Assembly (NCBI GenBank): GCA_028695415.1
Contig: JAQVIY010000001.1
Span: 46,784 to 110,783, forward strand
Reading direction: 5' to 3'
DNA length: 64,000 nt
Source of the DNA: Minisyncoccota bacterium
GTDB taxonomy: Bacteria; Patescibacteriota; Minisyncoccia; Phycocordibacterales; Phycocordibacteraceae
Each line of letters starts with the position of its first letter. Position 1 is the stretch's first letter. The position numbers and the translations under genes are program-made. Positions 16,430 through 57,195 of this stretch are shown here, piece after piece. The notes beneath the pieces were generated by a model. That model was given only the letters and a program-made list of their open reading frames with translations. It was not told where the DNA came from and searched no databases.

Positions 16430-17215
16430 TCATGAGATCTCGACGCGGATCGGATGGTGGTCGGAGCCGACGCGATCGGGGAGAACCCCCGCTTTTTTAA
16501 TGAAGAAAGAATGCGATACGAGAATATGATCGAGCTGGGACTGCGAGAGCGGATGCGTGATGCCGCCGTAGAGCGGATTCACCAACTCGTATTCGACAAA
16601 ACGTTTTTCAATAGCGGTGCGTTCGCGGCGATAAAGCAGTGCGTCGCGGAGCGTACCACCGAAGAGCCAATTTAGGGGCGTGATGTGCGGTTTCTCGAGA
16701 ATGTTGAAGTCGCCGCAGACTATTGCCGGTCGCCCCGAAGGGCCCCTTTCGGGGCGTTCTATCATCGCGCGTTCGAACTCTCGCAAGCGCCATGCGGGCT
16801 GGGTGCGGGTGAGGTGGAGGTTGAATACGCGTACCGTGCTTTGAGTATCGGGGAGACAAATATCGGCATAGAGCCCGCCGCGATTGCGCGCCTCAGAGAA
16901 ATGAAAAGGGAACATAAGGCGATTGAAGATTCGCCCGCGGAACGAGAGCGCGTTATCTGGAAAAGGTATCGCGCCCTGCCGCTCGATCGGATAGCGAGAA
17001 AGTATGACGAGATAATCTCGCACGACGCCGCTCCTAAATACGCGGTCGAGGCTTGTGCCTGAGGTAAGGTGATACGGGAGTGTCTGAAGCCGCGCGAGAA
17101 AAGCCTCGGGCACTTCTTGGAGACAGAAGATATCGAAATCAGCACGCGAAATAAATTCGAACGCCCGATCAAGCTCACGATTGCGGAAAAGAAGATTCCA
17201 CGAGTAAATCGTCAT
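16430..17215 (-). CDS. Endonuclease/exonuclease/phosphatase (EEP) family protein
   Basis: CGDFNILE and SDHHPIRVEI motifs. Confidence 0.75.
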   Translation of the reverse strand: MTIYSWNLLFRNRELDRAFEFISRADFDIFCLQEVPEAFLARLQTLPYHLTSGTSLDRVFRSGVVRDYLVILSRYPIERQGAIPFPDNALSFRGRIFNRLMFPFHFSEARNRGGLYADICLPDTQSTVRVFNLHLTRTQPAWRLREFERAMIERPERGPSGRPAIVCGDFNILEKPHITPLNWLFGGTLRDALLYRRERTAIEKRFVEYELVNPLYGGITHPLSQSQLDHILVSHSFFIKKAGVLPDRVGSDHHPIRVEIS

Positions 17216-18070
17216 ACTCTATGCCACGCCCCAAACTCTTCTTTTGCGAGGCCGCGCAGCTCGAGGGCGACGAGTGCGGTGAGTGCCTCGCCTGCGGGTA
17301 TACCTGCCGCGCGGAGTATCTCGTCGCGCGTTTTCGGCTCGTCAAGCATACCCCAGATAACGCGCTCGGCGTCCTCGAGGTCGCTCGGCGCCACGTCGCT
17401 TACCGCGCCTTCGCGTGGCGGTATCCCGAGCGCCTCGAGGATATGCAAGGGCTCGGTGACGAGCGCTGCGCCGAGGCGGATGAAGAGGTGCGGGCCAAAC
17501 GCGTGCGGGTCGCCGATACGGTGCGGGATACAGAGCAGGTCGCGATTATATTCGGAAGCGAGCCGCGCGGTGATAAGCGTACCCGACTTATTCCCGGCTT
17601 CGATAACAAGCACCGCATCAGCGAGCCCGACCATAAGGCGATTGCGCGCGGGGAAGTAGTGCGCGCGCGAGGCTTCGTCCGGCGGATATTCAGAAAGCAT
17701 TCCGCCACCCTTCTCTAGTATCTCTTTCGCGAAGCCGCGATTACTCCGTGGGTAGAGGACATCGTCGCCGAGACCTGATCCCGGAAGAACGAGCGTGTGG
17801 AGTCCGGCGGCGAGCGCCGCTTTATGCGCGCAGGTATCAACGCCGAGCGCGAGACCGCTCACTATCGAAATAGGGTAGCCGGCGAGTCCGGCGATAAGCT
17901 TTTCGCACGCCTCCTGTCCGTAGCGCGTCATCGCGCGGCTACCGACGACCGTAAGGAGCTTATGTCCCTTGGGCGGGAGCGCGCCGCGCAACCAGAGCTG
18001 TTTTGGTTGTTGCGGTATCTCACGAAGTTGTGCAGGCCACTCTTCTCGCTCGAGTTCGCGGATTTCCATG
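17212..18070 (-). CDS. dprA: DNA processing protein DprA (Smf)
   Basis: Rossmann core VVGSRAMTRYG...IVSGLALGVD...FPARNRLMVGL...GSLITARLA. Start at internal ATG 18070 (MEIRELE). Confidence 0.8.
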
Positions 18071-18119
18071 GTTTGTAGTATAACGTGCTTTAGTAACTGA
18101 TCCCTGAAAGGAGGATGGT

Positions 18120-18638
18120 ATGAAAGAGGGCGATCCGTTCTTATTGAAGATCGACCGAACTCGGTCATTTGATCCTGTGCGGTTTTACGGAAAGGGGTGG
18201 ACGATTTGGCGCCACTCACCTTTTGGTCATGATGGTCTCAAAGGTGATGAAGACGAAGAAAAGAGCTCACTCGTTCTTAAGGGAATAAACTTCGTACAAA
18301 TCAGCTTCGAGACGTGTCTCAAGAAAGGGGAGACGGTCATCACTGGCGACGAGAAGATTATCAGGCACGCTCGAGCCGGACACACACAATTCGACGCGCG
18401 CATCGCAGAATGTCTTCTCGACGAAGAGGGGTGGGTGACACTTGAAGCAGTGTATGCAGGGTGGGGTATGGACAGCTTCGAATTCACCGGTACGAGGTTG
18501 CGAAGCTTGGCTGGCCGCCGGGCAGTCGTATGTCTCAATCGCGATATCGATCCTTGTGGCCGTGTACGTTGGAGGCCAACCTACGAATGGATCAGTCTCG
18601 TCGTCTACGGTCGGCACCCATCGATCATCCTAGCCTAG
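18120..18638 (+). CDS. Hypothetical protein
   Basis: 172-aa ORF with RBS ggaggatggtATG; terminator hairpin 18655..18693 downstream. Confidence 0.45.
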   Translation: MKEGDPFLLKIDRTRSFDPVRFYGKGWTIWRHSPFGHDGLKGDEDEEKSSLVLKGINFVQISFETCLKKGETVITGDEKIIRHARAGHTQFDARIAECLLDEEGWVTLEAVYAGWGMDSFEFTGTRLRSLAGRRAVVCLNRDIDPCGRVRWRPTYEWISLVVYGRHPSIILA

Positions 18639-21711: not shown

Positions 21712-22842
21712 ATGGACATTATGAAGTCGTTTTGGCAAGGCTTACCTAAGCCGTTTTTCGCGATGGCACCGATGAAGGATGTCACAGACGCGGCGTTTCG
21801 CGCGCTCGTCGCTCGACGAGGCGCGCCAGATGTGTACTGGACAGAGTTCGTTTCTGCTGATGGCCTCTACCACACACGCGAGATACAGAAGATGAAAGAC
21901 GAGGACCCTACGTCGCTCGGAAGCTATGAAGGGCACAGGAATCCGCTCATGCGCGATCTCGTGTATGGAGCCGATCAGCACCCCATTGTCGCACCACAAG
22001 GGCACTTCCATTTTCCTAACCCTGGGTACAGGGAAGGAAAATTGGTCGCACCACAAGGGCACTTCCATTTTCCTAGCCCTGGGTACAGGGAAGGAAAATT
22101 GGTCGCACAGATATTCTCGGACAAGCCGGAGATGATAGCGTATGCGGCGAAGCTCGTCGCCGAACTCGGTTTCGACGGCGTCGATATAAATATGGGCTGC
22201 CCTGACCGCTCGGTCGAGAAGCAGGGTGCCGGTGCCGCGCTTATCAAGAGTCCTGAAAAGGCGCGTGCGATTATTCGCGCCGCAAAAGCAGCGAGCAATC
22301 TACCGGTCTCGGTGAAGACGCGGGTAGGGTACAACAAAGAGACACTCGACGAGTGGCTTCCGGCGCTTCTTGAAGAAGCGCCGGCGGCTATCACGCTTCA
22401 TTTGCGCACGCGCAAGGAGCTCTCGCTCGTATCGGCTCATTGGGAGCTTATGAAGAGGGCGGTGGAGCTGCGCGATCAGATCGCGCCCGAGGTGCTCCTC
22501 ATCGGCAATGGCGACGTGACGAGCGTTGCGGAAGGGAAGCGGCTCGCAAAAGAGACGAGATGCGACGGCATTATGATTGGCCGCGGTATGTTCGGCAACC
22601 CGTGGGTTTTCGCGGGCCGCACGTCGGACGATACGCCGCTCGCAGAGAAGCTCGCGGCTCTGATTGAGCTCGCGCACGGCTTTGAGAATCTCTCTCCGCC
22701 AAAGAATTTCGCGATATTGAAAAAACACATCAAGGCGTTCGTGACCGGCTTTGATGGCGCGGCGCACTTCCGCGCGAAGCTGATGGAGGCGGAGAATGTC
22801 ACCGAGCTCGAGCAAATACTGAAAACATCTAGCTACGTATAA
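21712..22842 (+). CDS. dus: tRNA-dihydrouridine synthase (Dus family) containing an in-frame 2x20-aa tandem duplication
   Basis: APMKDVTDAAFR; DINMGCP; duplicated APQGHFHFP(N/S)PGYREGKLV inserted in the HPI..QIFSDKPE loop. Confidence 0.85.
   Translation: MDIMKSFWQGLPKPFFAMAPMKDVTDAAFRALVARRGAPDVYWTEFVSADGLYHTREIQKMKDEDPTSLGSYEGHRNPLMRDLVYGADQHPIVAPQGHFHFPNPGYREGKLVAPQGHFHFPSPGYREGKLVAQIFSDKPEMIAYAAKLVAELGFDGVDINMGCPDRSVEKQGAGAALIKSPEKARAIIRAAKAASNLPVSVKTRVGYNKETLDEWLPALLEEAPAAITLHLRTRKELSLVSAHWELMKRAVELRDQIAPEVLLIGNGDVTSVAEGKRLAKETRCDGIMIGRGMFGNPWVFAGRTSDDTPLAEKLAALIELAHGFENLSPPKNFAILKKHIKAFVTGFDGAAHFRAKLMEAENVTELEQILKTSSYV
21989..22108 (+). repeat. Tandem 60-bp duplication (2 copies, 1 mismatch) inside dus
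   Basis: gcaccacaagggcacttccattttccta(a/g)ccctgggtacagggaaggaaaattggtc repeated twice. Confidence 0.8.
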
Positions 22843-22876
22843 AAAAGCAACCGCCCGAGTACAACCGGGCGGTTTT
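22609..22876 (+). repeat. Direct repeat copy 1: dus 3' end plus terminator (~268 bp), about 90% identical to 23555..23822
   Basis: Visible alignment of both copies, including the ccgcccg..ccgggcggtttt terminator hairpin. Confidence 0.8.
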
Positions 22877-22887
22877 CAAGAAGCGGC

Positions 22888-23451
22888 TTAGCGGATGAGA
22901 ATGATCGCGGTTATCACGACATTCAGCAGTCCGGCACCGACGGCGACAAAGATATTCGCGAAATCACGTTTCTCTGCGCCGAGCACCACGAAGAGGCAAG
23001 AGACGATTGTCAGAAGCCACAGCCAGAGCGTGCCCGGCTGGGGCTCGGACCAGTAGTCCTTCATAAGCGGCACGAACGAGATCCACATCGCCGTCATGTA
23101 GGCCCACTGCGCCCGAAGTGCATCGAGCGTAATCCAGAGTACGATTGCAACGACCACCAGGGCGGTGGACGAATATTCCGTCCATCTCCAGACTGATGGT
23201 TGGTCGCTTGTGGCGACGACGACGAAGATCAGGAATGCAGCCATCGCCCATCCGATCTGCAGGTACGGCTTTTTGTTGCCACCGCGCCATGCGAGAACGA
23301 GCCCCAGCAGGTCAAGGACAAACACCATCATCCACGTCGCGACATTTTGCTTGACGTTCGTCGTGTACAGCATCCACGCATAGTACGTGGGAATCGCGAA
23401 GCCCATGAGGCCGCCGATCAGTATTGCTTGGGACTTTAGAACTCGTTCCAC
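22888..23451 (-). CDS. Integral membrane protein (about 6 TM), GTG start. Cargo of the dus 3'-end insertion
   Basis: Hydrophobic profile; RBS gaggag 6 nt upstream; promoter TTGACA-17-TACGAT within the palindrome at 23520..23535. Confidence 0.5.
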   Translation of the reverse strand: MERVLKSQAILIGGLMGFAIPTYYAWMLYTTNVKQNVATWMMVFVLDLLGLVLAWRGGNKKPYLQIGWAMAAFLIFVVVATSDQPSVWRWTEYSSTALVVVAIVLWITLDALRAQWAYMTAMWISFVPLMKDYWSEPQPGTLWLWLLTIVSCLFVVLGAEKRDFANIFVAVGAGLLNVVITAIILIR

Positions 23452-23554: not shown

Positions 23555-23822
23555 TTCGCGGGTCGTACGAGCGAAGACACGCAGCTCGCAGAGAAGCTCG
23601 CGGCTCTGATTGAGCTCGCGCACGGCTTTGAGAATCTCTCTCCGCCAAAGAATTTCGCGATATTGAAAAAACACATCAAGGCGTTCGTGACCGGCTTCGA
23701 CGGCGCAGCGCACTTGCGCGCGAAGTTGATGGAGGCCGAGAACGCGAGCGAGCTTGAGCAGGCGCTTAAAGTTTCCGGTCATATATAAAAAACGACCGCC
23801 CGTTTAGAACCGGGCGGTTTTA
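23555..23822 (+). pseudogene. Duplicated dus 3' fragment (pseudo-ORF 23501..23788) plus duplicated terminator; direct repeat copy 2
   Basis: Translation FAGRTSEDTQLAEKLAALIELAHGFENLSPPKNFAILKKHIKAFVTGFDGAAHLRAKLMEAEN matches the Dus C-terminus. Confidence 0.75.
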
Positions 23823-41062: not shown

Positions 41063-43114
41063 GTGACTAACTTCAAACCTCATTTTCCATACCAGCCGGC
41101 GGGCGACCAGCCCGAGGCTATCAAGACTCTTGAGAAAGGGCTCTTGAAGGGTATGCGTCATCAAACACTCTTTGGCGCGACGGGTACGGGTAAGACGTTT
41201 ACTGTTGCAAATGTCATCGCGAAGCTCGATAAGCCGACTCTTGTCCTTGCACATAACAAGACGCTTGCCGCGCAGCTCGCGCAAGAATATCGTTCATTCT
41301 TCCCCGAGAACGCGGTGCACTATTTCGTCTCCTATTACGACTACTATCAGCCCGAAGCATATATCGCGCACTCCGATACGTATATAGAGAAAGAAGCGAT
41401 GATCAACGCCGAGATAGATCGCTTGCGTCACGCGGCGACTCAAGCATTACTCACGCGCAAAGATGTCATTATTGTCGCGTCAGTGTCCGCAATCTACGGG
41501 CTCGGTTCGCCTGAAGAGTATGAGAAAGTGCACGTAAAGATACAGAAACAGGAGACCGTCGAAGGAGGCAGGGGTGGATTGATACGGAAGCTCGTCGGTA
41601 TTTACTTTGAACGTACGAATGCAGATCTTAATCCCGGACAGTTGCGCGCCATCGGCAACTCGCTTGAGTTCATGCCGGTAAATGAGCGTGTGATGTATCG
41701 CGTCGCGTTTGATGGCGATACGGTGGCACGCATTGATCAGCTTGACCCGGTCTCGCGCGCAAAAGTTGCGGAACTTGAGTCGGTCTTCGTCTTCCCGGCG
41801 AAGCACTTCGTGACAAATGAAGACGAGCGCGCCCGCGCCATCGAGGACATCAAGCTTGAACTCGACGAACAGCTCGCGAAGTTCAAACGCGAAGAGAAGC
41901 CCTTGGAAGCTGAGCGTCTGAAACGCCGCACGCTTCACGACCTCGCTCTTATCCGCGAGCTCGGGTATACGACGGGTATCGAGAATTACTCGCGGCATTT
42001 CGATGGGCGCAAAGCAGGAGAACCCCCCTTCACGCTCCTGAGTTATTTCAAACGTTGTGACAAGGATTTCCTCACCGTGATAGACGAGTCGCATGTGACG
42101 GTATCGCAGCTCGGCGGGATGTATGCGGGCGACAAATCGCGCAAGGATACACTCATCGAGTACGGCTTCCGGCTCCCCTCGGCGCGTGATAATCGTCCGC
42201 TCACGTTTGAAGAGTTTGAAGGGCGTACTGGACAGGTGCTCTACACGAGCGCTACGCCGGGGCCGTATGAAAAAGCACACTCTGAACAGATTGTTGAACA
42301 GGTTATCCGCCCGACTGGTCTCCTCGATCCTGAACTTACCGTGCGTGGTGTGATCGAGACGAAAGAGTATAAGGGTCAGATAGCAGACTTTATTGAAGAA
42401 GCGGGAAAGGTCATACAGAATGGCGGCAGAGCGCTCGCGACGACGCTCACCAAACAGATGGCAGAAGATCTTGCATCGTTCCTGCGCGAGAAGGGTATCA
42501 AGGCGGAATATCTCCACTCTGACGTGAAGACGATAGACCGTATTGATATTCTCACGAAATTCCGCAAAGGCGAGTTCGACATTCTCGTCGGCGTAAATCT
42601 CCTTCGTGAGGGGCTCGATCTTCCCGAAGTCGAGCTCGTGGGTATCCTCGACGCCGACAAAGAGGGCTTCCTCCGCAGCGAGACTTCACTTATCCAGACA
42701 ATCGGTCGTGCGGCGCGCAATGTGCTCGGGCGCGTCATTCTCTATGCCGATGTGATGACGGGCTCACTCGAACGCGCGATAGGGGAGACGAATCGCCGTC
42801 GCGAAAAGCAGATTGCTTATAACCAAGAGCATGGCATTACCCCGACAACCATAAAGAAAGAAATACACGATATCGCTGCGTCGATGCGTACCGAGCATCA
42901 AAAGACGGTGGACGACCTGCTCGCGCTCGACACAATTGCCTACAAAGATGACCCGAAAGCGTTCATCACGCAGAAGCGACTTGAGATGGCCGAAGCCGTA
43001 GAGAGTCTGGACTTCGAGACCGCCGCCCTCATCCGCGATGAGATCTATAAGCTCGAAGGCACCGGTCCCAAGGCAAAAAAGCCCCGCACCCGCAAGCCGT
43101 TGTCAGGAGGTTGA
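41063..43114 (+). CDS. uvrB: Excinuclease ABC subunit B
   Basis: GATGTGKT P-loop, DESH box, C-terminal UVR domain. Confidence 0.9.
   Translation: MTNFKPHFPYQPAGDQPEAIKTLEKGLLKGMRHQTLFGATGTGKTFTVANVIAKLDKPTLVLAHNKTLAAQLAQEYRSFFPENAVHYFVSYYDYYQPEAYIAHSDTYIEKEAMINAEIDRLRHAATQALLTRKDVIIVASVSAIYGLGSPEEYEKVHVKIQKQETVEGGRGGLIRKLVGIYFERTNADLNPGQLRAIGNSLEFMPVNERVMYRVAFDGDTVARIDQLDPVSRAKVAELESVFVFPAKHFVTNEDERARAIEDIKLELDEQLAKFKREEKPLEAERLKRRTLHDLALIRELGYTTGIENYSRHFDGRKAGEPPFTLLSYFKRCDKDFLTVIDESHVTVSQLGGMYAGDKSRKDTLIEYGFRLPSARDNRPLTFEEFEGRTGQVLYTSATPGPYEKAHSEQIVEQVIRPTGLLDPELTVRGVIETKEYKGQIADFIEEAGKVIQNGGRALATTLTKQMAEDLASFLREKGIKAEYLHSDVKTIDRIDILTKFRKGEFDILVGVNLLREGLDLPEVELVGILDADKEGFLRSETSLIQTIGRAARNVLGRVILYADVMTGSLERAIGETNRRREKQIAYNQEHGITPTTIKKEIHDIAASMRTEHQKTVDDLLALDTIAYKDDPKAFITQKRLEMAEAVESLDFETAALIRDEIYKLEGTGPKAKKPRTRKPLSGG
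43058..43098 (+). repeat. Direct repeat copy 1 (uvrB 3' end, 41 bp); matches 43895..43935 at 38/41
   Basis: ggcaccggtcccaaggcaaaaaagccccgcacccgcaagcc vs ggcaccggtcccaaggcaaagaagccccgcactcggaagcc. Confidence 0.8.
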
Positions 43115-43202
43115 ATCTAGAAGAATAGGGGAGTAGAGTGCGCCTAGATGTGCATGAGGATCCGTCCTCACACGTCCTTTTCAACTGACAGAGGAGCTGA
43201 CA

Positions 43203-43856
43203 ATGGATACGTCCGACAGCATGGCTTTGTGGCACGGAGACTTGAATTACCTATTGGCGGGGCACCAGGTGCCTCTCAACTGTTTGTCGTCAGAAGAATG
43301 GCTCGTGGTTATACACAAAGCTCTCGATAGGGTGGCATTGAAATATCTGCCGCACATTCGAGACCTGACGAAGACGCTCTCCACGATACAACAGTGGGGG
43401 TTGTACAACATCGACTCCAGTCCGGAACTCAAGATAGTCGCTTGGAAGGCCGGCAAGAAACATTGGGGGATAGAGAAAGACGTGCGTCTTATTCCCGTTG
43501 GTGCTGTCACAGTACCTCCGCCACCACCAAGGAAAAATGCGTACAGAGGGAAAGACACAACACAACCAGATGTGCACCTGTTCCTTAGTACCAAGCAACA
43601 ATGGATCAAGATGGAACGGATTCTCGTCGACAAGATTTGGGACCAACACGAGGAGCTTTGTTTTTGCGGCCTAAACGAGGATGAACTGATCGAGGTAGTT
43701 GGTGACCAGCGTATCTTCTGGCCGCAAATGCTCTACCACCTGAAGACGCTCGCGGAGCTGAGCATGCGTCAGAAGGAAGAGCATATCGAGCAGCTGGGAC
43801 ATACGATCAGGAGGTTGGATGAAATAACCAGCCGTGTTGGACCAAAGTTCCCATAG
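43203..43856 (+). CDS. Hypothetical protein (cargo of the uvrB 3'-end insertion; lower GC)
   Basis: 217-aa ORF with RBS gaggag; terminator hairpin 43862..43892. Confidence 0.5.
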   Translation: MDTSDSMALWHGDLNYLLAGHQVPLNCLSSEEWLVVIHKALDRVALKYLPHIRDLTKTLSTIQQWGLYNIDSSPELKIVAWKAGKKHWGIEKDVRLIPVGAVTVPPPPPRKNAYRGKDTTQPDVHLFLSTKQQWIKMERILVDKIWDQHEELCFCGLNEDELIEVVGDQRIFWPQMLYHLKTLAELSMRQKEEHIEQLGHTIRRLDEITSRVGPKFP

Positions 43857-43894
43857 CACCAAGCCCGGAGCAATCCGGGCTACTTTATTTATAA

Positions 43895-43935
43895 GGCACC
43901 GGTCCCAAGGCAAAGAAGCCCCGCACTCGGAAGCC
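43895..43935 (+). repeat. Direct repeat copy 2 (remnant uvrB 3' end)
   Basis: See copy 1. Confidence 0.8.
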
Positions 43936-43955
43936 CTTTCGGGAAGTTAGTTGAA

Positions 43956-43965
43956 GTGGTATAAT
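43956..43965 (+). promoter_or_regulatory. Extended -10 element GTGGTATAAT upstream of uvrA
   Basis: TGn plus consensus TATAAT, 37 nt upstream of the uvrA ATG. Confidence 0.45.
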
Positions 43966-44002
43966 CACATCGTACCTGCCCCTCCACGGGTAGGATTCCT
44001 GC

Positions 44003-46687
44003 ATGAAAAAACAAAGCGCGAAGGAAGAACACAAGCACAAGCACGGGAGCGACTGGCTCCGCGTGAAGGGTGCGCGCACCCATAACCTGAAGAATATCGA
44101 CGTCGATATGCCGCGCGGGGCGATGACGGTGATCACTGGTCTCTCCGGCTCGGGCAAGTCTTCGCTCGCTTTTGATACTATCTTCGCCGAAGGTCAACGG
44201 CGGTATGTGGAGTCGCTTTCCGCGTACGCGCGCCAGTTCCTCAATCAGATGGCGAAGCCGGATGTGGACGAGATACGCGGACTCTCGCCGGCCATCTCTA
44301 TAGACCAGAAGAGCCGCTCTAACAATCCGCGCTCGACGGTAGCGACCGTCACCGAAATTTATGATTATCTGCGCGTGCTCTATGCACGCGCCGGTCAGCC
44401 GTACTGTATTCATCATGATGTACCTATCGTGCGACTCTCAAAAGAGGAAATGATCAAAATGGTGTTCAATCGCGTAGAGAAAAAGAGAAGCGGGATGGGC
44501 CTGCCGAGCACCAATTCCGATTCGGTGCTTGGTGTCGCGGTAGATAAGACTGCAGTTATTGTCTACGCGCCGGTCGTCGTCGGTCGTAAAGGCGAGTACT
44601 ACCAGCTTCTCTACGACCTCCTTAGTAAGGGCTATGAGAAAGTAGTTGTTGATGGCAAGCTGCACTCGCTCCGCGAGAAGATTGTCATGGAACGCAACAA
44701 GGTGCACAGCATAGACGCGCTCGTGGACTCCATCTACGTCTCGGAATTTGCGCGCTCCACCGCCGCGGCGCGCGAGCGCCTCTCGGAGGCTCTCGAGCTC
44801 GCACTCAAACAGGCCGACGGCCTCGTGAAGATCGCGCACGCCGACGGCTCCGTCGAGACGCTTTCGTCGAAGTTCATCTGCCCCGAGGACGGCGCTTCGT
44901 TTCCCGAGGTCGAACCTCGGTTATTCTCGTTCAACTCGCCGTATGGCGCGTGTCCGACCTGTCACGGGCTCGGCACTGAATCGCTCTTCTCTGAAGAGGC
45001 GTGTCCGGTCTGTGAGGGGAAGCGTCTGCGGCCCGAAGCGCTGCGGGTGTACCTGAAGAGCGGCCCTACTTCGCATAAAGCTACGAAGGGCGCAGAAGGA
45101 AGCAGCCCACTCGGCAAGAGCATTGTAGATTTCACCAACATGTCGATTCGCGAAGCGAAGGACTTTGTCGATTCTATCGAGCTCTCTGAGATGAAGTTCG
45201 ATATTGCCGCGCCGATCCTGAAAGAGATTGAGAGCCGACTCTCCTTTATGTTGAATGTCGGCCTCGATTATCTCACGCTGAACCGTTCGGCCGCCACTCT
45301 CTCTGGTGGCGAGGCACAGCGCATCAGGCTCGCGTCCCAACTCGGGAGCGGGCTCACGGGAGCGCTCTACGTGCTCGACGAACCGACGATCGGACTCCAT
45401 CAGCGCGACAACGACCGTCTTATCAAGACCTTGCTCACGCTCAAAGAGCTCGGCAACACGATCGTCGTCGTCGAGCACGACGAGGAGACGATGTACGCAT
45501 CAGACTATATTGTTGATATCGGTCCCGGCGCGGGCATTCATGGCGGCACGGTTGTCGTGCAGGGCTGGCTCGATGATCTCCTCACTGCCAAAGAGAATAA
45601 GAGCGGCTCACAGACGCTCGCGTATGTACGGGGCGAGAAGGAGATTGCCGTGCCCGAGGAGCGTCGTACGAGCGAGAAGGGCTCGCTGAAGGTGCGCGGC
45701 GCGACGCTCCACAATCTCGTCAATCAAAATGTCGATGTTCCTTTGGGTAAGCTTGTTTGTATCACGGGCGTTTCTGGGAGCGGGAAGTCCACCTTTCTCT
45801 ACGACATTTTGCACCGCAATATCGCGGCGCGTTTCGCGCGTCGCGAAGCGAAACTCGAGCACGTCGCAAGCATGACTGGCACCGAATACCTCGGGCGCGC
45901 CATCCTTATTGACCAGTCGCCAATAGGCCGCACACCGCGAAGTAATCCGGCGACGTACACCGGTGCTTTCACTCATATTCGCGATCTCTTCGCCGCTACC
46001 GGCGAGGCGCGGGCGCGCGGCTGGAAGCCGGGCCGCTTCTCTTTCAATGTTCCCGGCGGACGCTGTGAAGCGTGTCAGGGTAATGGCTCCATCGCAGTTG
46101 AGATGCACTTCCTCCCGACGGTGTACGTCACGTGCGATGTGTGCGAAGGCAAGCGCTTTATGAAAGAGACGCTCGAGGTGACCTATCGCGGCAAGACTAT
46201 CTATGAGGTGCTCCAGATGACTATTGAAGAAGCGGAAAAGTTTTTTGGCGATATTCCCGCGATCTATGAGCGCCTCGCTTCGCTCAACTCCACCGGCCTG
46301 CAGTACCTCACGCTCGGGCAGAGCGCGACGACACTCTCGGGCGGTGAAGCTCAGCGCGTGAAGATCGCGAGCGAGCTCTACCGCTCAATGCCGATGAAGA
46401 CCATATATCTGCTCGATGAACCGACGGTCGGCCTCCACTACGAAGATGTGCAGAAGCTCATCGAGATACTGCAAGAGCTCGTTGCGCGCGGCAACACGGT
46501 TGTCGTCATCGAGCACAACCTCGATGTCATCAAAAGCGCCGACTACCTGATCGACTTTGGCCCTGAAGGCGGCGCGGGCGGCGGTAAGGTGGTGGCGAAG
46601 GGTACACCCGAAGAAGTCGCTGCGACCGACGGCTCGCACACCGGCCATTACCTTGCGAAGCATCTCCACAAGCGCCGCAAGAAATAA
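44003..46687 (+). CDS. uvrA: Excinuclease ABC subunit A
   Basis: Two ABC modules ([18 protein letters not shown]), zinc fingers, LSGGEAQR signature x2. Confidence 0.9.
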
Positions 46688-51420: not shown

Positions 51421-51620
51421 CAAAACAAAGGAGCCGGATGCGGAAGCATTCGGCGACTATTGTTTTGTAGGGCCGTACAGGATTCGAAGAGACGGAGCGG
51501 GCACCTGTCCAGCAGGACAGGTCGCGAGTCGCGGACACGACCAAAGTCGAGCGACGGCGAGATTTTGAGTCGCGGAAGAAAAGCGTAATCGCGGTCCTGT
51601 ACGGTCCACAAAAACAAGAA
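51421..51620 (+). repeat. tRNA-Ala trailer insert (174 nt) ending in a direct repeat of the tRNA 3' end (tcctgtacggtccacaaaa at 51595..51613), plus an internal inverted copy at 51463..51492
   Basis: Direct 19-nt repeat of 51405..51423; inverted near-copy ttgttttgtagggccgtacaggattcgaag. Confidence 0.7.
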
Positions 51621-51705
51621 GCGGAGCGCCTATGTTTTTGTAGGATGCCGAAGTGCAAGTAACTTTGGCGCCACAAAATCCGGACAACTATGGCATACTG
51701 CATAT

Positions 51706-52182
51706 ATGCCGCAGAAGAAAACCCTTATCGAGAAAATGACGACGGGAGTGGGGTCGGTGCCTTCGCTTGTCGTGCACACCCTGGTATTTATAGGGTTCTT
51801 TGTCGCCGCGTGGTCGGGAACTATCGGCTGGGACACGATGCTGCTCGCGCTCACGACTATCGTCTCGCTTGAGGCGATTTATCTCGCAATATTCATCCAG
51901 ATGTCGGTAAACAGGCACGCTGCAGAGCTTGCCGAGGTGAGTGAGGACGTCGAGGATATTCAGGAAGATGTTGACGAGATCCAAAAGGATGTCGATGAGA
52001 TTCAGAAAGACGTCGATGAGATTCAGGAAGATGTGGAAGATATCCAAGAGGATGTCGAGGAGATTAGCGATGAGGACGAGACCGATGATGAGCACGATAA
52101 AAAACAGACCGCTGCGCTTGAACAGCTCACGCAGGATATCCATCGCGTGCTCGCCGATCTTGAGCAGTTGAAGAGAAAGTAA
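51706..52182 (+). CDS. DUF1003 family membrane protein with acidic C-terminal heptad repeats
   Basis: WDTMLLALTTIVSLEAIYLAIFIQMSVNRHAA resembles the DUF1003 core; six 21-bp tandem repeats at 51943..52066. Confidence 0.6.
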   Translation: MPQKKTLIEKMTTGVGSVPSLVVHTLVFIGFFVAAWSGTIGWDTMLLALTTIVSLEAIYLAIFIQMSVNRHAAELAEVSEDVEDIQEDVDEIQKDVDEIQKDVDEIQEDVEDIQEDVEEISDEDETDDEHDKKQTAALEQLTQDIHRVLADLEQLKRK

Positions 52183-52298: not shown

Positions 52299-52426
52299 CA
52301 AGAAGACTGGGAAACCGGGCTTCTTGATGCACTAGGGGACTCGAAGGCCGGAGGCTAACGAGCCGAGGCGGGGTCGCGCAGATTTCCAGCAGGAAATCAT
52401 GTGTGACCGAGTCCCTTGGAGCGCAC
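52299..52426 (+). repeat. tRNA-Val trailer insert (108 nt) ending in a perfect 19-nt direct repeat of the tRNA 3' end (cgagtcccttggagcgcac at 52408..52426 = 52281..52299)
   Basis: Contains conserved motif cgaaggccggaggctaacgagccgaggcggggtcgcgcag. Confidence 0.75.
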
Positions 52427-52443: not shown

Positions 52444-52514
52444 CGGGCCGGAGTATGCCGGTAGTACGCACGCTTCGGGTGCGTGTAGACCGGGTTCAAT
52501 TCCCGGCGGCCCGA
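52444..52514 (+). tRNA. tRNA-Pro (anticodon CGG), C1:G72
   Basis: CGGGCCG GA GTAT GCCGGTA GTAC G CACGC TTCGGGT GCGTG TAGA CCGGG TTCAATT CCCGG CGGCCCG A. Confidence 0.75.
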
Positions 52515-53257
52515 CAAAGAACATCTCCGAATAATACAGAGAGTTTGTTTTCTGGATAAATATCGTTTGGATAAATCTCAACGAGTCTATAACCAAGCTT
52601 TTTGGCAAGCGAACGCTTTCTTTTGATATTCTTGTCGTAAACTTCTTGTACTCCAGCGAGTCCGAAAAACTCGACTAGGATATCGAAATGTATCTTGAAA
52701 TCAGCCGTCAGTCTCGTATCCCCATATGGATAATTTCGTTCGTGTAGAATACAGTTGCTCGTAAACCAATCGTCGATAATCTTTTCGGTGAACGAATCGC
52801 AATCATGTCCGTCTGTGGCTGTGAATTTTTTCGCAAACAGAACAGGATTCGTCTCAAAGCCCGCTTGTTTGATGGCGTTATTCCAGCTTCCGAAGTTTGC
52901 AGCAAAAGCATCCCACTGATTGAACTCACGCTTGAGTGGAATGCGTCCGTTTAGTACATAAAAATCTCGGATCTTCTTGAGAAGGTCTTCACTCGAGTAC
53001 TTCTTTCGATAGGGTGCAAGACGTTCTCCGACAATCTTTTTTTCTGTTGCGCTCATCCGATGGTAATTCCTTCGATTCTCAATCGCCTGTTTTTGCAGAA
53101 GAGAAATCTGAACATCTTTGGTCCACTGATGTGCGATGCTTATGCTTACGCTTAGTTGCTTTGCTATTTCGCGATGCGTCAATCCTTCAGAACGGAGGAA
53201 GCGCGCGTTCTCTTTAGTCGAGGCAGAATGGCGGACTCCGTTTCTTGCTTTCAGCAT
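52496..53257 (-). CDS. HTH-domain protein with C-terminal Vsr/DUF559-like PD-(D/E)xK endonuclease domain; homing-endonuclease-like selfish gene in an AT-rich insert between tRNA genes
   Basis: N-terminal LTHREIAKQLSVSISIAHQW (HTH). C-terminal TADFKIHFDILVEFFGLAGVQEVYDKNIKRKRSLAKKLGYRLVEI matches the DUF559 pattern D..h.IE.DG...H....D..R...L...G..V.R. Low GC. 3' end overlaps tRNA-Pro. Confidence 0.55.
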   Translation of the reverse strand: MLKARNGVRHSASTKENARFLRSEGLTHREIAKQLSVSISIAHQWTKDVQISLLQKQAIENRRNYHRMSATEKKIVGERLAPYRKKYSSEDLLKKIRDFYVLNGRIPLKREFNQWDAFAANFGSWNNAIKQAGFETNPVLFAKKFTATDGHDCDSFTEKIIDDWFTSNCILHERNYPYGDTRLTADFKIHFDILVEFFGLAGVQEVYDKNIKRKRSLAKKLGYRLVEIYPNDIYPENKLSVLFGDVLCRAAGN

Positions 53258-53357: not shown

Positions 53358-53542
53358 AGCCCGACCAAAAACGTTCGACGTTTTTTCGGGCTACAGCAAG
53401 CGTAGCTTGCGACGGGAATCGAAAGCCGGAGCGATGTTCGGCTAGCAAGCCGAACCGCGAGGCGGGGCCGAGAAAATCCGTGAGTGACGACGAACGGATT
53501 ATTCGTGGCCGAAACCGTATTCGGGGTTCCCAGTAGCCCGAC
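53358..53542 (+). repeat. tRNA-Pro trailer insert (169 nt) ending in a 16-nt direct repeat of the tRNA 3' end (ttcccagtagcccgac at 53527..53542 = 53340..53355)
   Basis: Contains conserved motif cgaaagccggagcgat...cgcgaggcggggccg. Confidence 0.75.
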
Positions 53543-53660
53543 AAATAAGCTTCGTGTTAGAATCGTCCATGCAGTAATTTGTATCGGGCCTGTACGACAG
53601 CGTACATACCCTTCGTTCGGAGCAAGAGAATATGCAGACACATTCTCTTGTCCTCACTTC

Positions 53661-55361: not shown

Positions 55362-56459
55362 ATGCTGAAAATCGGTATTGTCGGTTTGCCGAACGTGGGG
55401 AAGTCCACGCTTTTTAATGCACTCACGAAAGCGAGCGTTCCGGCGGAGAATTATCCGTTTTGCACCATCGACCCGTCGGTCGGGGTGGTCGGCGTGCCCG
55501 ATATGCGTCTCGACAAGCTCGCCGACTTCTCAAAGAGCGAGAAGGTGGTCCCGGCGGCGATAGAGTTCGTTGATATTGCGGGACTCGTGAAGGGCGCGGC
55601 CGAGGGCGAAGGACTCGGGAACCAGTTCCTCGCGAATATCCGCGAGACTGACGCGATACTTGAGCTGGTGCGTTTTTTCGACGACCCGAACATTACCCAT
55701 GTCTCCGAAGAGGTGGAGCCGTACAAGGACATCGAGATTATCAATCTCGAACTCGCTCTCGCCGACGCCGAGCAGGTCAGGAAGCGCCGCGATAAGCTCG
55801 TGCGCGATATCAAAACGGGCAACAAAGATGCGGCCGCCGAGGACGCTGCGCTCGAGAAACTCTCTAAAGGCTTCTCGGAAGGTAAGCTCGCGATAAACGC
55901 CGGGCTCACTGACGACGAAAAGAAGCTCGTCTCGACGCTGAATCTCCTCACGATGAAGCCCATCCTCTATGCGTTCAACAAGAAGAGCGGCGGGCGTAAT
56001 TTGGACGAGCTCGCTGACGGTCGTGCAGATCGCGCGTATGAGCTCATTAGGATGCTCGGCGGACGGCACATCTTCCTTGATGCCGTGACGGAGCGCGAGC
56101 TCAATGACGTTGTCGACGCCGATCGCGACGGATTCCGCCAAGAGCTCGGCGTTTCTGAAGACGGTCTGGCCGAGCTTATCCGCGGCGCGTATGAGACGCT
56201 CGGGCTCATCTCTTTCTTCACCACCGGCACCGATGAGACGCGCGCGTGGACGGTCTCCTCAGGGAGTACCGCGCCGATAGCGGGTGCCGCTATTCATAAT
56301 GATTTCTTGAATAAGTTTATCCGCGCCGAGGTGATTGATTGGCAGAAGCTCCTTGAACTCGGCTCCTACGCCGCCGCCCGCGAGAAGGGCATGGTGCGCG
56401 TCGAAGGCAAGGAATATGTCGTCTCTGACGGCGACGTGATGGTCTTCCTCCACGGGTGA
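55362..56459 (+). CDS. ychF: Ribosome-binding ATPase YchF (Obg-family GTPase)
   Basis: G1 GLPNVGKST; TGS-like C-terminus ...DGDVMVFLHG. Confidence 0.9.
   Translation: MLKIGIVGLPNVGKSTLFNALTKASVPAENYPFCTIDPSVGVVGVPDMRLDKLADFSKSEKVVPAAIEFVDIAGLVKGAAEGEGLGNQFLANIRETDAILELVRFFDDPNITHVSEEVEPYKDIEIINLELALADAEQVRKRRDKLVRDIKTGNKDAAAEDAALEKLSKGFSEGKLAINAGLTDDEKKLVSTLNLLTMKPILYAFNKKSGGRNLDELADGRADRAYELIRMLGGRHIFLDAVTERELNDVVDADRDGFRQELGVSEDGLAELIRGAYETLGLISFFTTGTDETRAWTVSSGSTAPIAGAAIHNDFLNKFIRAEVIDWQKLLELGSYAAAREKGMVRVEGKEYVVSDGDVMVFLHG
56427..56459 (+). repeat. Direct repeat copy 1 (ychF 3' end, 33 bp); matches 57163..57195 at 27/33
   Basis: gacggcgacgtgatggtcttcctccacgggtga vs gccggcgatgtgatgatcttcctccacggctag. 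Both copies end in a stop codon. Confidence 0.7.
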
Positions 56460-56491: not shown

Positions 56492-56839
56492 ATGGAAACG
56501 AAAATCGTCACCGACAGCATCACCCGCGACGAGCTGCGTACGCTCGCGCATGAGCAATATGGAGACATCATCAAAGCCGTTGTCGATACAGCGCAAGGCG
56601 TCATGGGCATCGGCGGTGAGCTGCACGTCGATATCCAGTCGCTACTCATTGAGAAAGCCGGGTCGCAGGGCGACACGACGTGGGGCATCAACCTCTATCT
56701 CGATCAGACGGGAGATGATTTCATCGAATTCGATTCGATGGTGAACCTGAAGCCCTTGATTGGGAATCGGACGCGTAATGTCGAAAGTGAGGAGGCGCGT
56801 GCCAAGATACGCGAGATCGTCGCGCGACTCGTCCGCTAA
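56492..56839 (+). CDS. Hypothetical protein (cargo 1 of the ychF 3'-end insertion)
   Basis: 115-aa ORF with RBS ggaggtaatggaaacg. Confidence 0.45.
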   Translation: METKIVTDSITRDELRTLAHEQYGDIIKAVVDTAQGVMGIGGELHVDIQSLLIEKAGSQGDTTWGINLYLDQTGDDFIEFDSMVNLKPLIGNRTRNVESEEARAKIREIVARLVR

Positions 56840-56844
56840 TAATT

Positions 56845-57159
56845 ATGGCCGTCTCTCGTGAGCGATGGTTCACCCTCTCACTCGCCGATCAGCTCGGCAA
56901 TGTGGGGAGCGAGGTTGGCCGCGCGCTCGCGTGGCAGGGGAAGAACACAGATCGTTTTTGGGGAGCGGCCGGACGGGCGCTTGAGCTTCTCGATCTCACA
57001 CGCGAGGATGCGCGATGGCGGAGTCGGCGTGCCGAGCTCGACCGCGCGCGCGAGTCAGTCGCCGATGCAATCCTCGGCGGAAGCGAATATGGAAGTCAGC
57101 TCGCCGACCTGGAGCGGTATTTCATACAGTTCGCTCTCTACTCCCGCCGGACCAACTAG
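56845..57159 (+). CDS. Hypothetical protein (cargo 2 of the ychF 3'-end insertion)
   Basis: 104-aa ORF; Arg-rich, no His. Confidence 0.4.
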   Translation: MAVSRERWFTLSLADQLGNVGSEVGRALAWQGKNTDRFWGAAGRALELLDLTREDARWRSRRAELDRARESVADAILGGSEYGSQLADLERYFIQFALYSRRTN

Positions 57160-57162
57160 GCT

Positions 57163-57195
57163 GCCGGCGATGTGATGATCTTCCTCCACGGCTAG
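57163..57195 (+). repeat. Direct repeat copy 2 (remnant ychF 3' end)
   Basis: Translates ...AGDVMIFLHG* in one frame. Confidence 0.7.

Follow-up and report, generated by a model that had tools for sequence, protein, structure and literature searches.

A single orphan gene between two diverged copies of the uvrB 3' end: a probable displacement insertion in a Patescibacterial genome

We analysed a 64-kb stretch of the metagenome-assembled genome of an ultra-small Patescibacterium (Paceibacteria; contig JAQVIY010000001.1; hereafter the window), focusing on the junction between the nucleotide-excision-repair genes uvrB and uvrA, where the last codons of uvrB occur twice and the two copies enclose one gene for a 217-aa orphan protein. 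Compared with related loci (numbered with L) and with a contig of the independent Logan assembly (L001), the junction very probably records a xenologous displacement insertion: A foreign uvrB terminus would have entered together with a gene, and the resident end would have been displaced downstream. Within the conserved ...EGTGPK... codons, a segment of ~0.84 kb continues the resident uvrB in register. It comprises, in this order, an alternative uvrB terminus, a putative promoter overlapping the stop codon, a hairpin leader, the 217-aa open reading frame (ORF) and a terminator; the presumed resident terminus now lies 837 bp downstream, where it abuts the uvrA promoter (Table 1). By such an event uvrB would stay intact because the incoming DNA brings a working end, and uvrA would keep its native upstream context because the old uvrB end travels with it. 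As regards the agent, we give even chances to host recombination without a dedicated recombinase.

A sequence-only reading of this DNA had pointed out a 41-bp direct repeat of the uvrB end with a match of 38/41, and our analysis confirms it: The 41-mer GGCACCGGTCCCAAGGCAAAAAAGCCCCGCACCCGCAAGCC lies at 43058-43098 and its second copy at 43895-43935, with 796 nt separating the two and a start-to-start distance of 837 nt. Ungapped, the repeat comprises 46 nt (43056-43101 vs 43893-43938, 42/46), and with one 1-nt gap it extends over ~57 nt and reaches the stop codons (43056-43112 vs 43893-43948; 87.7%). These are the only two matches to the 41-mer at up to three mismatches in the window, and dinucleotide-preserving shuffles yielded none (n=100), which is why low complexity does not explain the repeat; the Lys/Pro-rich coding bias that had been named as a possible refutation thus fails. 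More generally, the chance that the repeat reflects coincidental similarity caused by Lys/Pro/Arg-rich coding, or an assembly artefact, appears negligible. Admittedly, basic residues and rather low complexity characterise the UvrB tail, and the source is a metagenome-assembled genome (MAG); however, the right copy is in register with the uvrB ends of relatives up to the stop codon, L001 shows the identical arrangement, and a homologous architecture is found in L088, which comes from a different sample. The identical uvrB gene in L001 carries Pfam UvrB domains on record, and the encoded protein shares 75-88% amino acid identity with UvrB of 80 Kaiserbacteria/Paceibacterota MAGs.

The insert carries a single gene with its own ribosome-binding site (AGGAG, 7 nt before the ATG) and terminator (a hairpin followed by a T-run), just as the earlier reading had described it. 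The lower GC content that had also been ascribed to it is only weakly apparent: The insert has a GC fraction of 0.509 compared to a window mean of 0.544, but this corresponds to the 14th percentile among windows of the same size, and the GC fraction at third codon positions is 0.619 in the inserted gene and 0.621 in uvrB, which makes the composition of the former host-like.

Which copy of the repeat belonged to the original junction is suggested by comparison with relatives. A scan of species-representative genomes with UvrB provided 80 loci from Kaiserbacteria/Paceibacterota-type Patescibacteria, and in 61 species uvrB and uvrA were both present on the fetched stretch, which forms the basis of the gap counts. 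The gap between the two genes amounts to 43-170 nt in 18 of these species, to 170-1500 nt in 20 and to up to 3.8 kb in the remaining 23. The search for empty sites recommended in the earlier reading was therefore successful in 18/61 species: At these sites the uvrB stop is followed by a few bases, an extended -10 box (TGnTAnAnT), a conserved leader hairpin (GTACCTGCCCCNCCACGGGNAGG) and the uvrA start. The right copy in the window is collinear with this arrangement, since its stop, ~5 nt and the uvrA -10 box follow each other with the spacing of the empty sites. After repair of a 1-nt deletion in CCG (~43935/6) it reads ...RKPLSGS before the stop codon, and LSGS is the commonest uvrB ending in the clade; the left copy ends in ...PLSGG. 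Because of its unchanged relation to the uvrA promoter and leader, and because of this clade-typical ending after repair, the right copy appears to be the resident uvrB terminus, displaced and with its decay begun. The left copy would conversely have arrived with the insert, at least from ~43078 on. An exact-protein look-up of UvrA for an empty site in the same species returned no record; for the inserted gene's product there is a database record, which describes a hypothetical protein from a 'Candidatus Pacebacteria' MAG.

The uvrA upstream region deserves mention in its own right. Its leader hairpin GTACCTGCCCCNCCACGGGNAGG (window 43972-43994; same position in L006-L085) sits between the -10 box and the start codon and is almost invariant in the inspected uvrA upstream regions, at loci whose UvrB proteins are only 75-88% identical; it may be an operator or a regulatory element of the 5' untranslated region for nucleotide-excision-repair genes in this clade. 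One might speculate that the pseudo-end, that is, the displaced uvrB terminus, is kept as the source of a uvrA -35 element; the candidate hexamer TTTCGG is a poor match to TTGACA, and the promoter is of the extended -10 type.

The manner in which the copies differ argues for two alleles rather than for one copied end. The two copies in the window agree over their first 22 nt, and from there up to the indel they differ by four synonymous third-position changes. Pooled over the window, L088 and dus (see below), the differences are distributed 11/10/36 over codon positions 1/2/3, which departs from uniformity (P=4e-6) and also from a rough expectation for in situ duplication with only one copy under selection (P=0.007). 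Although the 93-nt pseudo-end of L088 has diverged by 20% from the end in use, its translation up to the stop codon remains the clade consensus KARKPRTRKPLSGS. In L054 it is the end in use that is atypical for the clade (...EAAAIIRDEMYRLEGEKGKVVRKKREEPKSRS, then stop), with only the last ~40 residues aberrant, while the canonical end (ETAALIRDEIYKLEGNGPKKKLRTRRALSGA, then stop) is located 33 nt further downstream; a terminator but no cargo gene separates the two.

These observations make it quite improbable that the uvrB end was duplicated in situ by slippage or unequal crossing-over, with the gene inserted later and the copies diverging. An excess of third-position changes is partly expected even if only one copy is under selection, but the observed distribution departs from this expectation, and the pseudo-ends of L088 and L054 encode consensus termini although they are at least 20% diverged from the ends in use. 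Moreover, the dus repeat is a mosaic with 111 identical nt between stretches of ~20% divergence, and it would take an additional mechanism to insert genes time and again at precisely the position between the copies. Local duplication or gene conversion nevertheless occurs at this site: In L084 the copies show 95% identity and have a palindromic insertion in common, so that one of these two processes is the apparent explanation for at least that locus. What the earlier reading had called a duplicated end hence stands as far as the insertion is concerned, whereas the copies are better described as diverged alleles than as a target-site duplication resulting from the insertion.

Displaced uvrB ends were searched for with an nhmmer profile of uvrB ends and with pairwise alignments, and the same scar was found with other cargo in seven other genomes. 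One displaced end each is present in L088 (93 nt, behind a homologue of the window's gene), in L084 (behind a NYN-domain gene followed by a tRNA_bind gene), in L044 (behind genes for a response regulator and a histidine kinase) and in L054, where a cargo gene is absent. L051 contains two displaced ends and carries a ParE-type toxin-antitoxin pair followed by two further cassettes; in L009 three cassettes, one of them encoding a SWEET-like membrane protein, are separated by uvrB-end copies of 37 nt and 28 nt. On their left side, the displaced ends begin at about -105, -90 (three cases), -72, -65, -59 (window), -37 and -25. Other fillings of the site come without a detected pseudo-end, namely a Zeta toxin gene in L018 and DUF5343 plus HEPN_Swt1 genes in L086. 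The regulator/kinase pair of L044 is an ordinary neighbour of uvrB in ~12 other species. Judging from these loci, the uvrB-uvrA junction is apparently a recombination hotspot for gene gain. Together with the empty sites and the failure of the low-complexity explanation, this recurrence supports the original interpretation that a gene was inserted at the uvrB 3' end, with the caveat that in two other lineages (L002, L086) the 217-aa family occupies the junction without any repeat. Two further candidates were rejected: The apparent repeat of L047 proved to be a repeated terminator, and the repeats of L033 are terminators common to tandem small genes.

Short perfect palindromes of 24-43 nt are dispersed in the relatives (L002 1020-1065; L084 6190-6225 and 6965-7000; L046 3072-3114 and 5353-5395; L051 1553-1581 and 2122-2150; L062 1053-1079 and 2257-2283; L031 6207-6230 and 9895-9918). 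At least two of them lie in frame within coding regions, in the uvrA N-terminus of L002 and in the uvrB tail of L084; the palindromes are reminiscent of Rickettsia palindromic elements.

The window itself contains two more sites with the same layout, and the likeness to the dus and ychF cases claimed in the earlier reading holds. At dus (ORF 21712-22842), 268 nt of 3' end plus terminator are present twice (22609-22876 vs 23555-23821, 86% identity) and flank a gene for a 187-aa membrane protein on the minus strand (22888-23451); the displaced copy remains an open frame. At ychF (ORF 55362-56459), only the last 31 nt are duplicated (56425-56455 vs 57161-57191, 28/31), and the enclosed two-gene cassette consists of a DUF5674 gene (56492-56839) and a 104-aa ORF (56845-57159). 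Both displaced ends abut the next native gene or its promoter, the ychF end lying just upstream of a TGGTATAAT promoter. The cargo family of dus is also known from other settings: In L125 it is the native convergent neighbour of dus, with neither pseudo-end nor duplicate, and in L129 it is located between fusA and tuf. Apart from this, the interior of dus contains an in-frame 57-nt tandem duplication (21988-22101), in which VAPQGHFHFPNPGYREGKL occurs twice with 56/57 identical positions.

How the foreign end and its gene were joined to the resident uvrB is less clear than the displacement itself. Because the dus repeat is mosaic and some repeats lack an identity of RecA length, we keep a trans-acting site-specific recombinase as the main rival to host recombination. 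According to this explanation, which is possible though rather unlikely, the insert is a non-autonomous cassette: A small circular element whose attP site mimics the uvrB terminus would have been inserted by a recombinase of the tyrosine or serine type, the gene for which would lie elsewhere in the genome or on a phage or plasmid, and arrays would build up by successive insertions. The layout is the classic one, with a direct repeat over the 3' end of a conserved gene, a substitute end borne by the element and a displaced original, and the identical 22-nt block at the left edge of the window repeat would be the expected remnant of a crossover with a diverged substitute end next to it. Three independent pseudo-ends (L088, L051-1 and L044) begin within a few nt of the conserved CTCATCCGC. 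The att-like repeats flank an element without a recombinase, the cassettes are compact and form arrays of 2-3 (L009, L051), and cargo such as ParE, Zeta toxin, HEPN and NYN genes is typical of mobile elements.

A recombinase domain, however, was detected neither in the gap ORFs tested at the uvrB-uvrA junction of the 80 relatives (~10 kb each) nor, in the 64 kb of the window, in the tested ORFs of the uvrB, ychF and dus cassettes or in ten other ORFs. The insert has no mobility gene either, so that the term cargo used in the earlier reading would overstate the case if taken to mean the load of a mobile element. At least three protein-gene targets within 64 kb would furthermore require several specificities in a genome assumed to measure ~1 Mb, as is usual for members of the candidate phyla radiation (CPR). 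At one and the same target the left boundaries are spread between -25 and -105, two members of one cargo family come with repeats of different length (57 nt in the window, 93 nt in L088), the end of L054 was displaced without cargo, and some cargo consists of ordinary neighbour genes of other lineages. Viral contigs likewise yielded no uvrB-end-like sequence in scans with two uvrB-end patterns: One scan returned 0 hits and the other 30 chance hits, and not one of the 30 matched the uvrB-end profile or UvrB/UvrA in tblastn.

Host recombination, the other candidate agent, would act as follows. The incoming DNA would be a chromosome piece of a related Patescibacterium carrying the 217-aa gene directly after uvrB, with no autonomous mobile element involved, and would be taken up by competence; the window encodes DprA (PF02481, E=9e-62; 17212-18219, minus strand), which mediates recombination of incoming single-stranded DNA. 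Integration by the host machinery would be anchored in the conserved uvrB end and would proceed either by homology-facilitated illegitimate recombination or by a single crossover of the Campbell type in which the donor copy is circular or concatemeric; repeated events would generate cassette arrays with old uvrB ends in between. The arrangement in L002 and L086, where a gene of the 217-aa family stands between uvrB and uvrA without a repeat, is the one to be expected of a donor. We favour this route because no recombinase domain occurs in the tested gap ORFs, because boundaries vary at one target while several targets exist in one small genome, because L054 exhibits displacement without cargo, because the cargos are ordinary neighbours elsewhere (the regulator/kinase pair, the dus cargo in L125, the 217-aa gene in L002 and L086), and because the composition is host-like and DprA is encoded in the window. 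Duplication lengths also vary between targets, from 31 nt at ychF to 268 nt at dus. [quoted passage not shown] As an aside, the DprA gene adjoins a gene of the Exo_endo_phos nuclease family (16430-17215).

Several points weigh against this account. Homology-facilitated illegitimate recombination usually results in deletions, not duplications. It is also rare in experiments (PMC5361080). The mosaic at dus seems to be explained less well by a simple anchored linear insertion than by a reciprocal single crossover with a circle or by gene conversion at a later stage, and in some repeats (ychF, L051-1) the longest block of identity comprises only 11-13 nt, which is short for RecA-dependent exchange. 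Tandem arrays and cargo of toxin or defence type are likewise expected from site-specific accretion of mobile cassettes, and the cassettes in L051, L009 and L044 are trimmed tightly to the stop codon of the cargo, like true cassettes. The near-identical copies of L084, with their shared insertion, point to in situ duplication or gene conversion in at least that case. Lastly, when the last 1.5 kb of uvrB were compared with the 80 relatives in sliding windows for the nearest neighbour, the closest of them stood at ~78% nucleotide identity; as no relative exceeds 78%, a donor tract upstream of the repeat is not mappable.

The inserted gene is preceded by what appears to be its own promoter at 43111-43139, whose -35-like hexamer TTGAAT overlaps the uvrB stop codon TGA (43112-43114) and whose -10 box (TAnnnT) is shared by every one of the 7 family members of known context; a consensus promoter scanner made no call there. 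A 12-bp leader hairpin follows, for which RNAalifold predicts 16 pairs from seven leaders, with compensatory changes in three. The near-palindromic 10-nt box GGAYNCGTCC occurs twice per gene: In the window it is found as GGAUCCGUCC in the hairpin (43160-43169) and recurs as AUGGAUACGUCC at the start codon (43205-43214). Both copies covary between relatives, since L002 has GGATCCGTCC twice and L092 has GGGTACGCCC twice. The -10 box, the hairpin and the 10-nt box are common to all seven family members (window, L002, L086, L088, L089, L091, L092). As the box overlies the start codon, the N-terminus MDTS is conserved across the family, at variance with the start at Met7 in the NCBI annotation. The covariation points to sequence-specific regulation, perhaps autoregulation. 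A metagenome scan for the leader motif recovered only two contigs, both already known.

Among 1.84 billion cluster representatives the 217-aa protein has nine relatives, eight of them full-length (209-227 aa). Its fold is predicted with confidence and is without a known homologue; searches for a recombinase- or nuclease-like fold, domain or motif were negative. G20, Y48, R95, R139, R211 and a number of hydrophobic residues are invariant in the family alignment. A metal-dependent nuclease activity is unlikely because acidic residues and histidine are missing from this set. Based on the hotspot neighbours, a toxin, defence or regulatory role can be guessed at. Four of the seven members with known context are located between uvrB and uvrA (window, L002, L086, L088), and a displaced uvrB end accompanies those in the window and in L088. 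The three distant members (L089, L091, L092) occupy other sites, one after yceG, one beside secG and one on a short contig, and a search for repeats flanking them found none. The uvrB ends linked to the family are no more alike than the background (0.63-0.65 vs 0.68).

Could the protein have mobilised its own gene? In such a self-mobilising single-gene element it would be a novel recombinase or homing factor aimed at the uvrB terminus, for which one could invoke the four members directly after uvrB, the presence of one Tyr and three Arg among the invariant residues (Y48, R95, R139, R211), and the palindromic leader boxes, whose covariation with the protein suggests sequence-specific binding of nucleic acid. 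We nonetheless judge this highly improbable: Fold and sequence are unlike any recombinase or nuclease and include no invariant acidic residue or His, the distant members reside at other sites without flanking repeats, and the scar does not need the 217-aa protein because it is found with unrelated cargo at uvrB, dus and ychF.

Known systems share parts of this architecture. Phage 21 and e14 at icd, like integrative and conjugative elements (ICEs) or genomic islands that insert into the 3' ends of conserved genes or tRNA genes, span kilobases and come with an integrase of their own. As with phage 21, e14 and ICEs, the uvrB locus shows a diverged substitute 3' end, the original as a far pseudo-copy, an imperfect direct repeat that overlaps and restores the 3' end of the target, and empty sites in relatives (18/61); unlike them, its insert measures 0.8 kb, holds one orphan gene and carries no site-specific recombinase of its own. 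The arrays of staphylococcal cassette chromosomes (SCC) and pseudo-SCC (psiSCC) at rlmH and the cis-mobilizable elements (CIME) at fda of Streptococcus thermophilus possess short, near-identical core sites, and the corresponding Ccr or integrase is known from related elements. They too consist of recombinase-less cassettes between repeats of a housekeeping 3' end and accrete in tandem, whereas the repeats described here span 25-268 nt, are diverged and variable in extent, and a cognate enzyme is not known. Integrons resemble the locus in their compact one- or two-gene cassettes beside a fixed site, with older cassettes pushed distally and a recombination-site-like repeat after each; in contrast to integrons, the locus lacks an IntI gene, its repeats are homologous to a coding 3' end instead of forming attC palindromes, and the cassettes have their own promoters. 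Neither an integrase gene between uvrB and uvrA nor an inverted-repeat structure at the repeats was detected. Of transposons or insertion sequences, we found neither a transposase nor terminal inverted repeats, the repeat being 46-57 nt long and diverged in a codon-aware manner; the homing endonuclease domains LAGLIDADG, HNH, GIY-YIG and PD-(D/E)XK had no match in the 217-aa protein.

Two further comparisons concern the exchange of gene ends and of gene content. Accessory or defence hotspots flanked by core genes are exchanged by homologous recombination in the flanks, and an ordinary double crossover leaves no duplicated end. The uvrB locus shares with them a variable region between conserved genes, an enrichment of cargo resembling toxin-antitoxin and defence genes and a cargo family that is bound to the locus across lineages; the scar at uvrB differs in that it records a non-standard junction. 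C-terminal displacement arrays are described for effector-immunity loci of the Rhs, contact-dependent inhibition (CDI) and T6SS type (Kirchberger 2017, PMC5361080). There, as here, a conserved body gains a new 3' end plus linked genes, the old 3' piece persists downstream with its homology kept, and arrays arise; alternative 3' ends with displaced homologous fragments are present in the window, L088, L051, L009, L044 and L054. Jackson (2009) and Poole (2011) are also reported to have dealt with such arrays. In these polymorphic toxins the swapped tip is the toxic payload, whereas at the uvrB locus the conserved body is a housekeeping repair gene, the tails are functionally equivalent, being ordinary basic UvrB tails, and the payload is an unrelated gene downstream; a polymorphic toxin tip with a cognate immunity gene is absent from this locus. 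Cassettes of one or two genes that lack an integrase, are accompanied by diverged displaced ends at CPR housekeeping genes and recur at a defined hotspot are not described in the literature searched, and the 2025 survey of Patescibacterial horizontal gene transfer mentions neither integrases nor direct repeats nor hotspots (PMC12455944).

The physical entry of new genes into CPR genomes is poorly documented, and the locus offers a readable molecular scar of one acquisition. Genomes of CPR bacteria (Patescibacteria) are tiny. If acquisition is independent of an integrase, displaced gene ends would be a simple signature by which recent gene gains in uncultured lineages could be found and dated, there would be a clear reason for accessory genes staying bound to a locus, and competence combined with relaxed homeologous recombination would be the likely engine. 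A much wider reading, which we put forward as doubtful, is that Patescibacteria possess an undescribed mode of cassette accretion, either integrase-free or driven by an unknown recombinase, in which the 3' ends of housekeeping and tRNA genes serve as reusable docking sites for integron-like accessory and defence arrays, and that this is a main route of gene gain for them. If this were true, each docked end would at the same time provide the following gene with its upstream promoter context. The orphan family is in any case singled out by its confidently predicted fold without a known homologue, its covarying leader and its repeated occurrence between two nucleotide-excision-repair genes.

Table 1. 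Coordinates of features at the uvrB-uvrA junction (positions in the window).
Feature	Position	Strand	Basis or remark
uvrB ORF, 683 aa, intact	41063..43114	+	ORF list; final ~19 codons form the left repeat copy
Left repeat copy, uvrB terminus in present use	43056..43112	+	alignments; first 22 nt identical in both copies
Putative promoter of inserted gene: -35-like TTGAAT (43111-43116), 17-nt spacer, -10 TAGAGT (43134-43139)	43111..43139	+	read from sequence
Predicted 5' leader hairpin, 12 bp, loop UCCG, contains box GGAUCCGUCC	43147..43176	+	RNAalifold, 7 homologous leaders
Ribosome-binding site AGGAG, 7 nt upstream of ATG	43192..43196	+	
Inserted gene, 217-aa orphan protein	43203..43856	+	ORF list; NCBI call is 211 aa from Met7
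Intrinsic terminator AGCCCGGAGCAATCCGGGCT plus T-rich tail	43862..43891	+	
Right repeat copy, apparent displaced former uvrB terminus (pseudo-end)	43893..43950	+	collinear with empty sites of relatives; nhmmer uvrB-end profile E=1.6e-6
uvrA extended -10 promoter TGGTATAAT	43957..43965	+	position and sequence kept in all inspected sites, empty or filled
uvrA leader hairpin GTACCTGCCCCTCCACGGGTAGG	43972..43994	+	conserved in all inspected sites, empty or filled
uvrA ORF, 894 aa, downstream flank of hotspot	44003..46687	+	ORF list

Within the 64 kb, the three protein-gene sites are accompanied by three tRNA-linked elements of uncertain relation to them. These homologous noncoding elements (~90-160 nt) directly follow tRNA-Ala(tgc), tRNA-Val(cac) and tRNA-Pro(ggg) at 51435-51622, 52300-52426 and 53368-53554, respectively, and each ends with a copy of the 3' end of its own tRNA. 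The Ala and Pro elements start with the complement of the tRNA 3' end, from which a closing helix of ~13-14 bp that mimics acceptor and T stems is predicted; it encloses conserved hairpins (minimum free energy z = -6.4 and -3.3). The shorter Val stretch has z = -4.4 and is without the closing helix. The elements contain no ORF and correspond to no Rfam family; possible identities are an RNA of a new kind that mimics tRNA and a miniature mobile element.

In the same region, an AT-rich stretch between two tRNA-Pro genes harbours a 253-aa ORF (52496-53257, minus strand) with a homing-endonuclease-associated repeat (PF18780, E=5.7e-11), and probably represents a free-standing homing-endonuclease-like gene. 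ORF 51706-52182, immediately behind the tRNA-Ala-linked element, includes at least five tandem 21-nt units (51946-52086) that encode heptads of the type DV(D/E)EIQ(K/E). Close to the left end of the window, a full-length match to the LOOT RNA family RF03000 was found at 1919-2040 on the plus strand (87.9 bits; gathering score 46.4).

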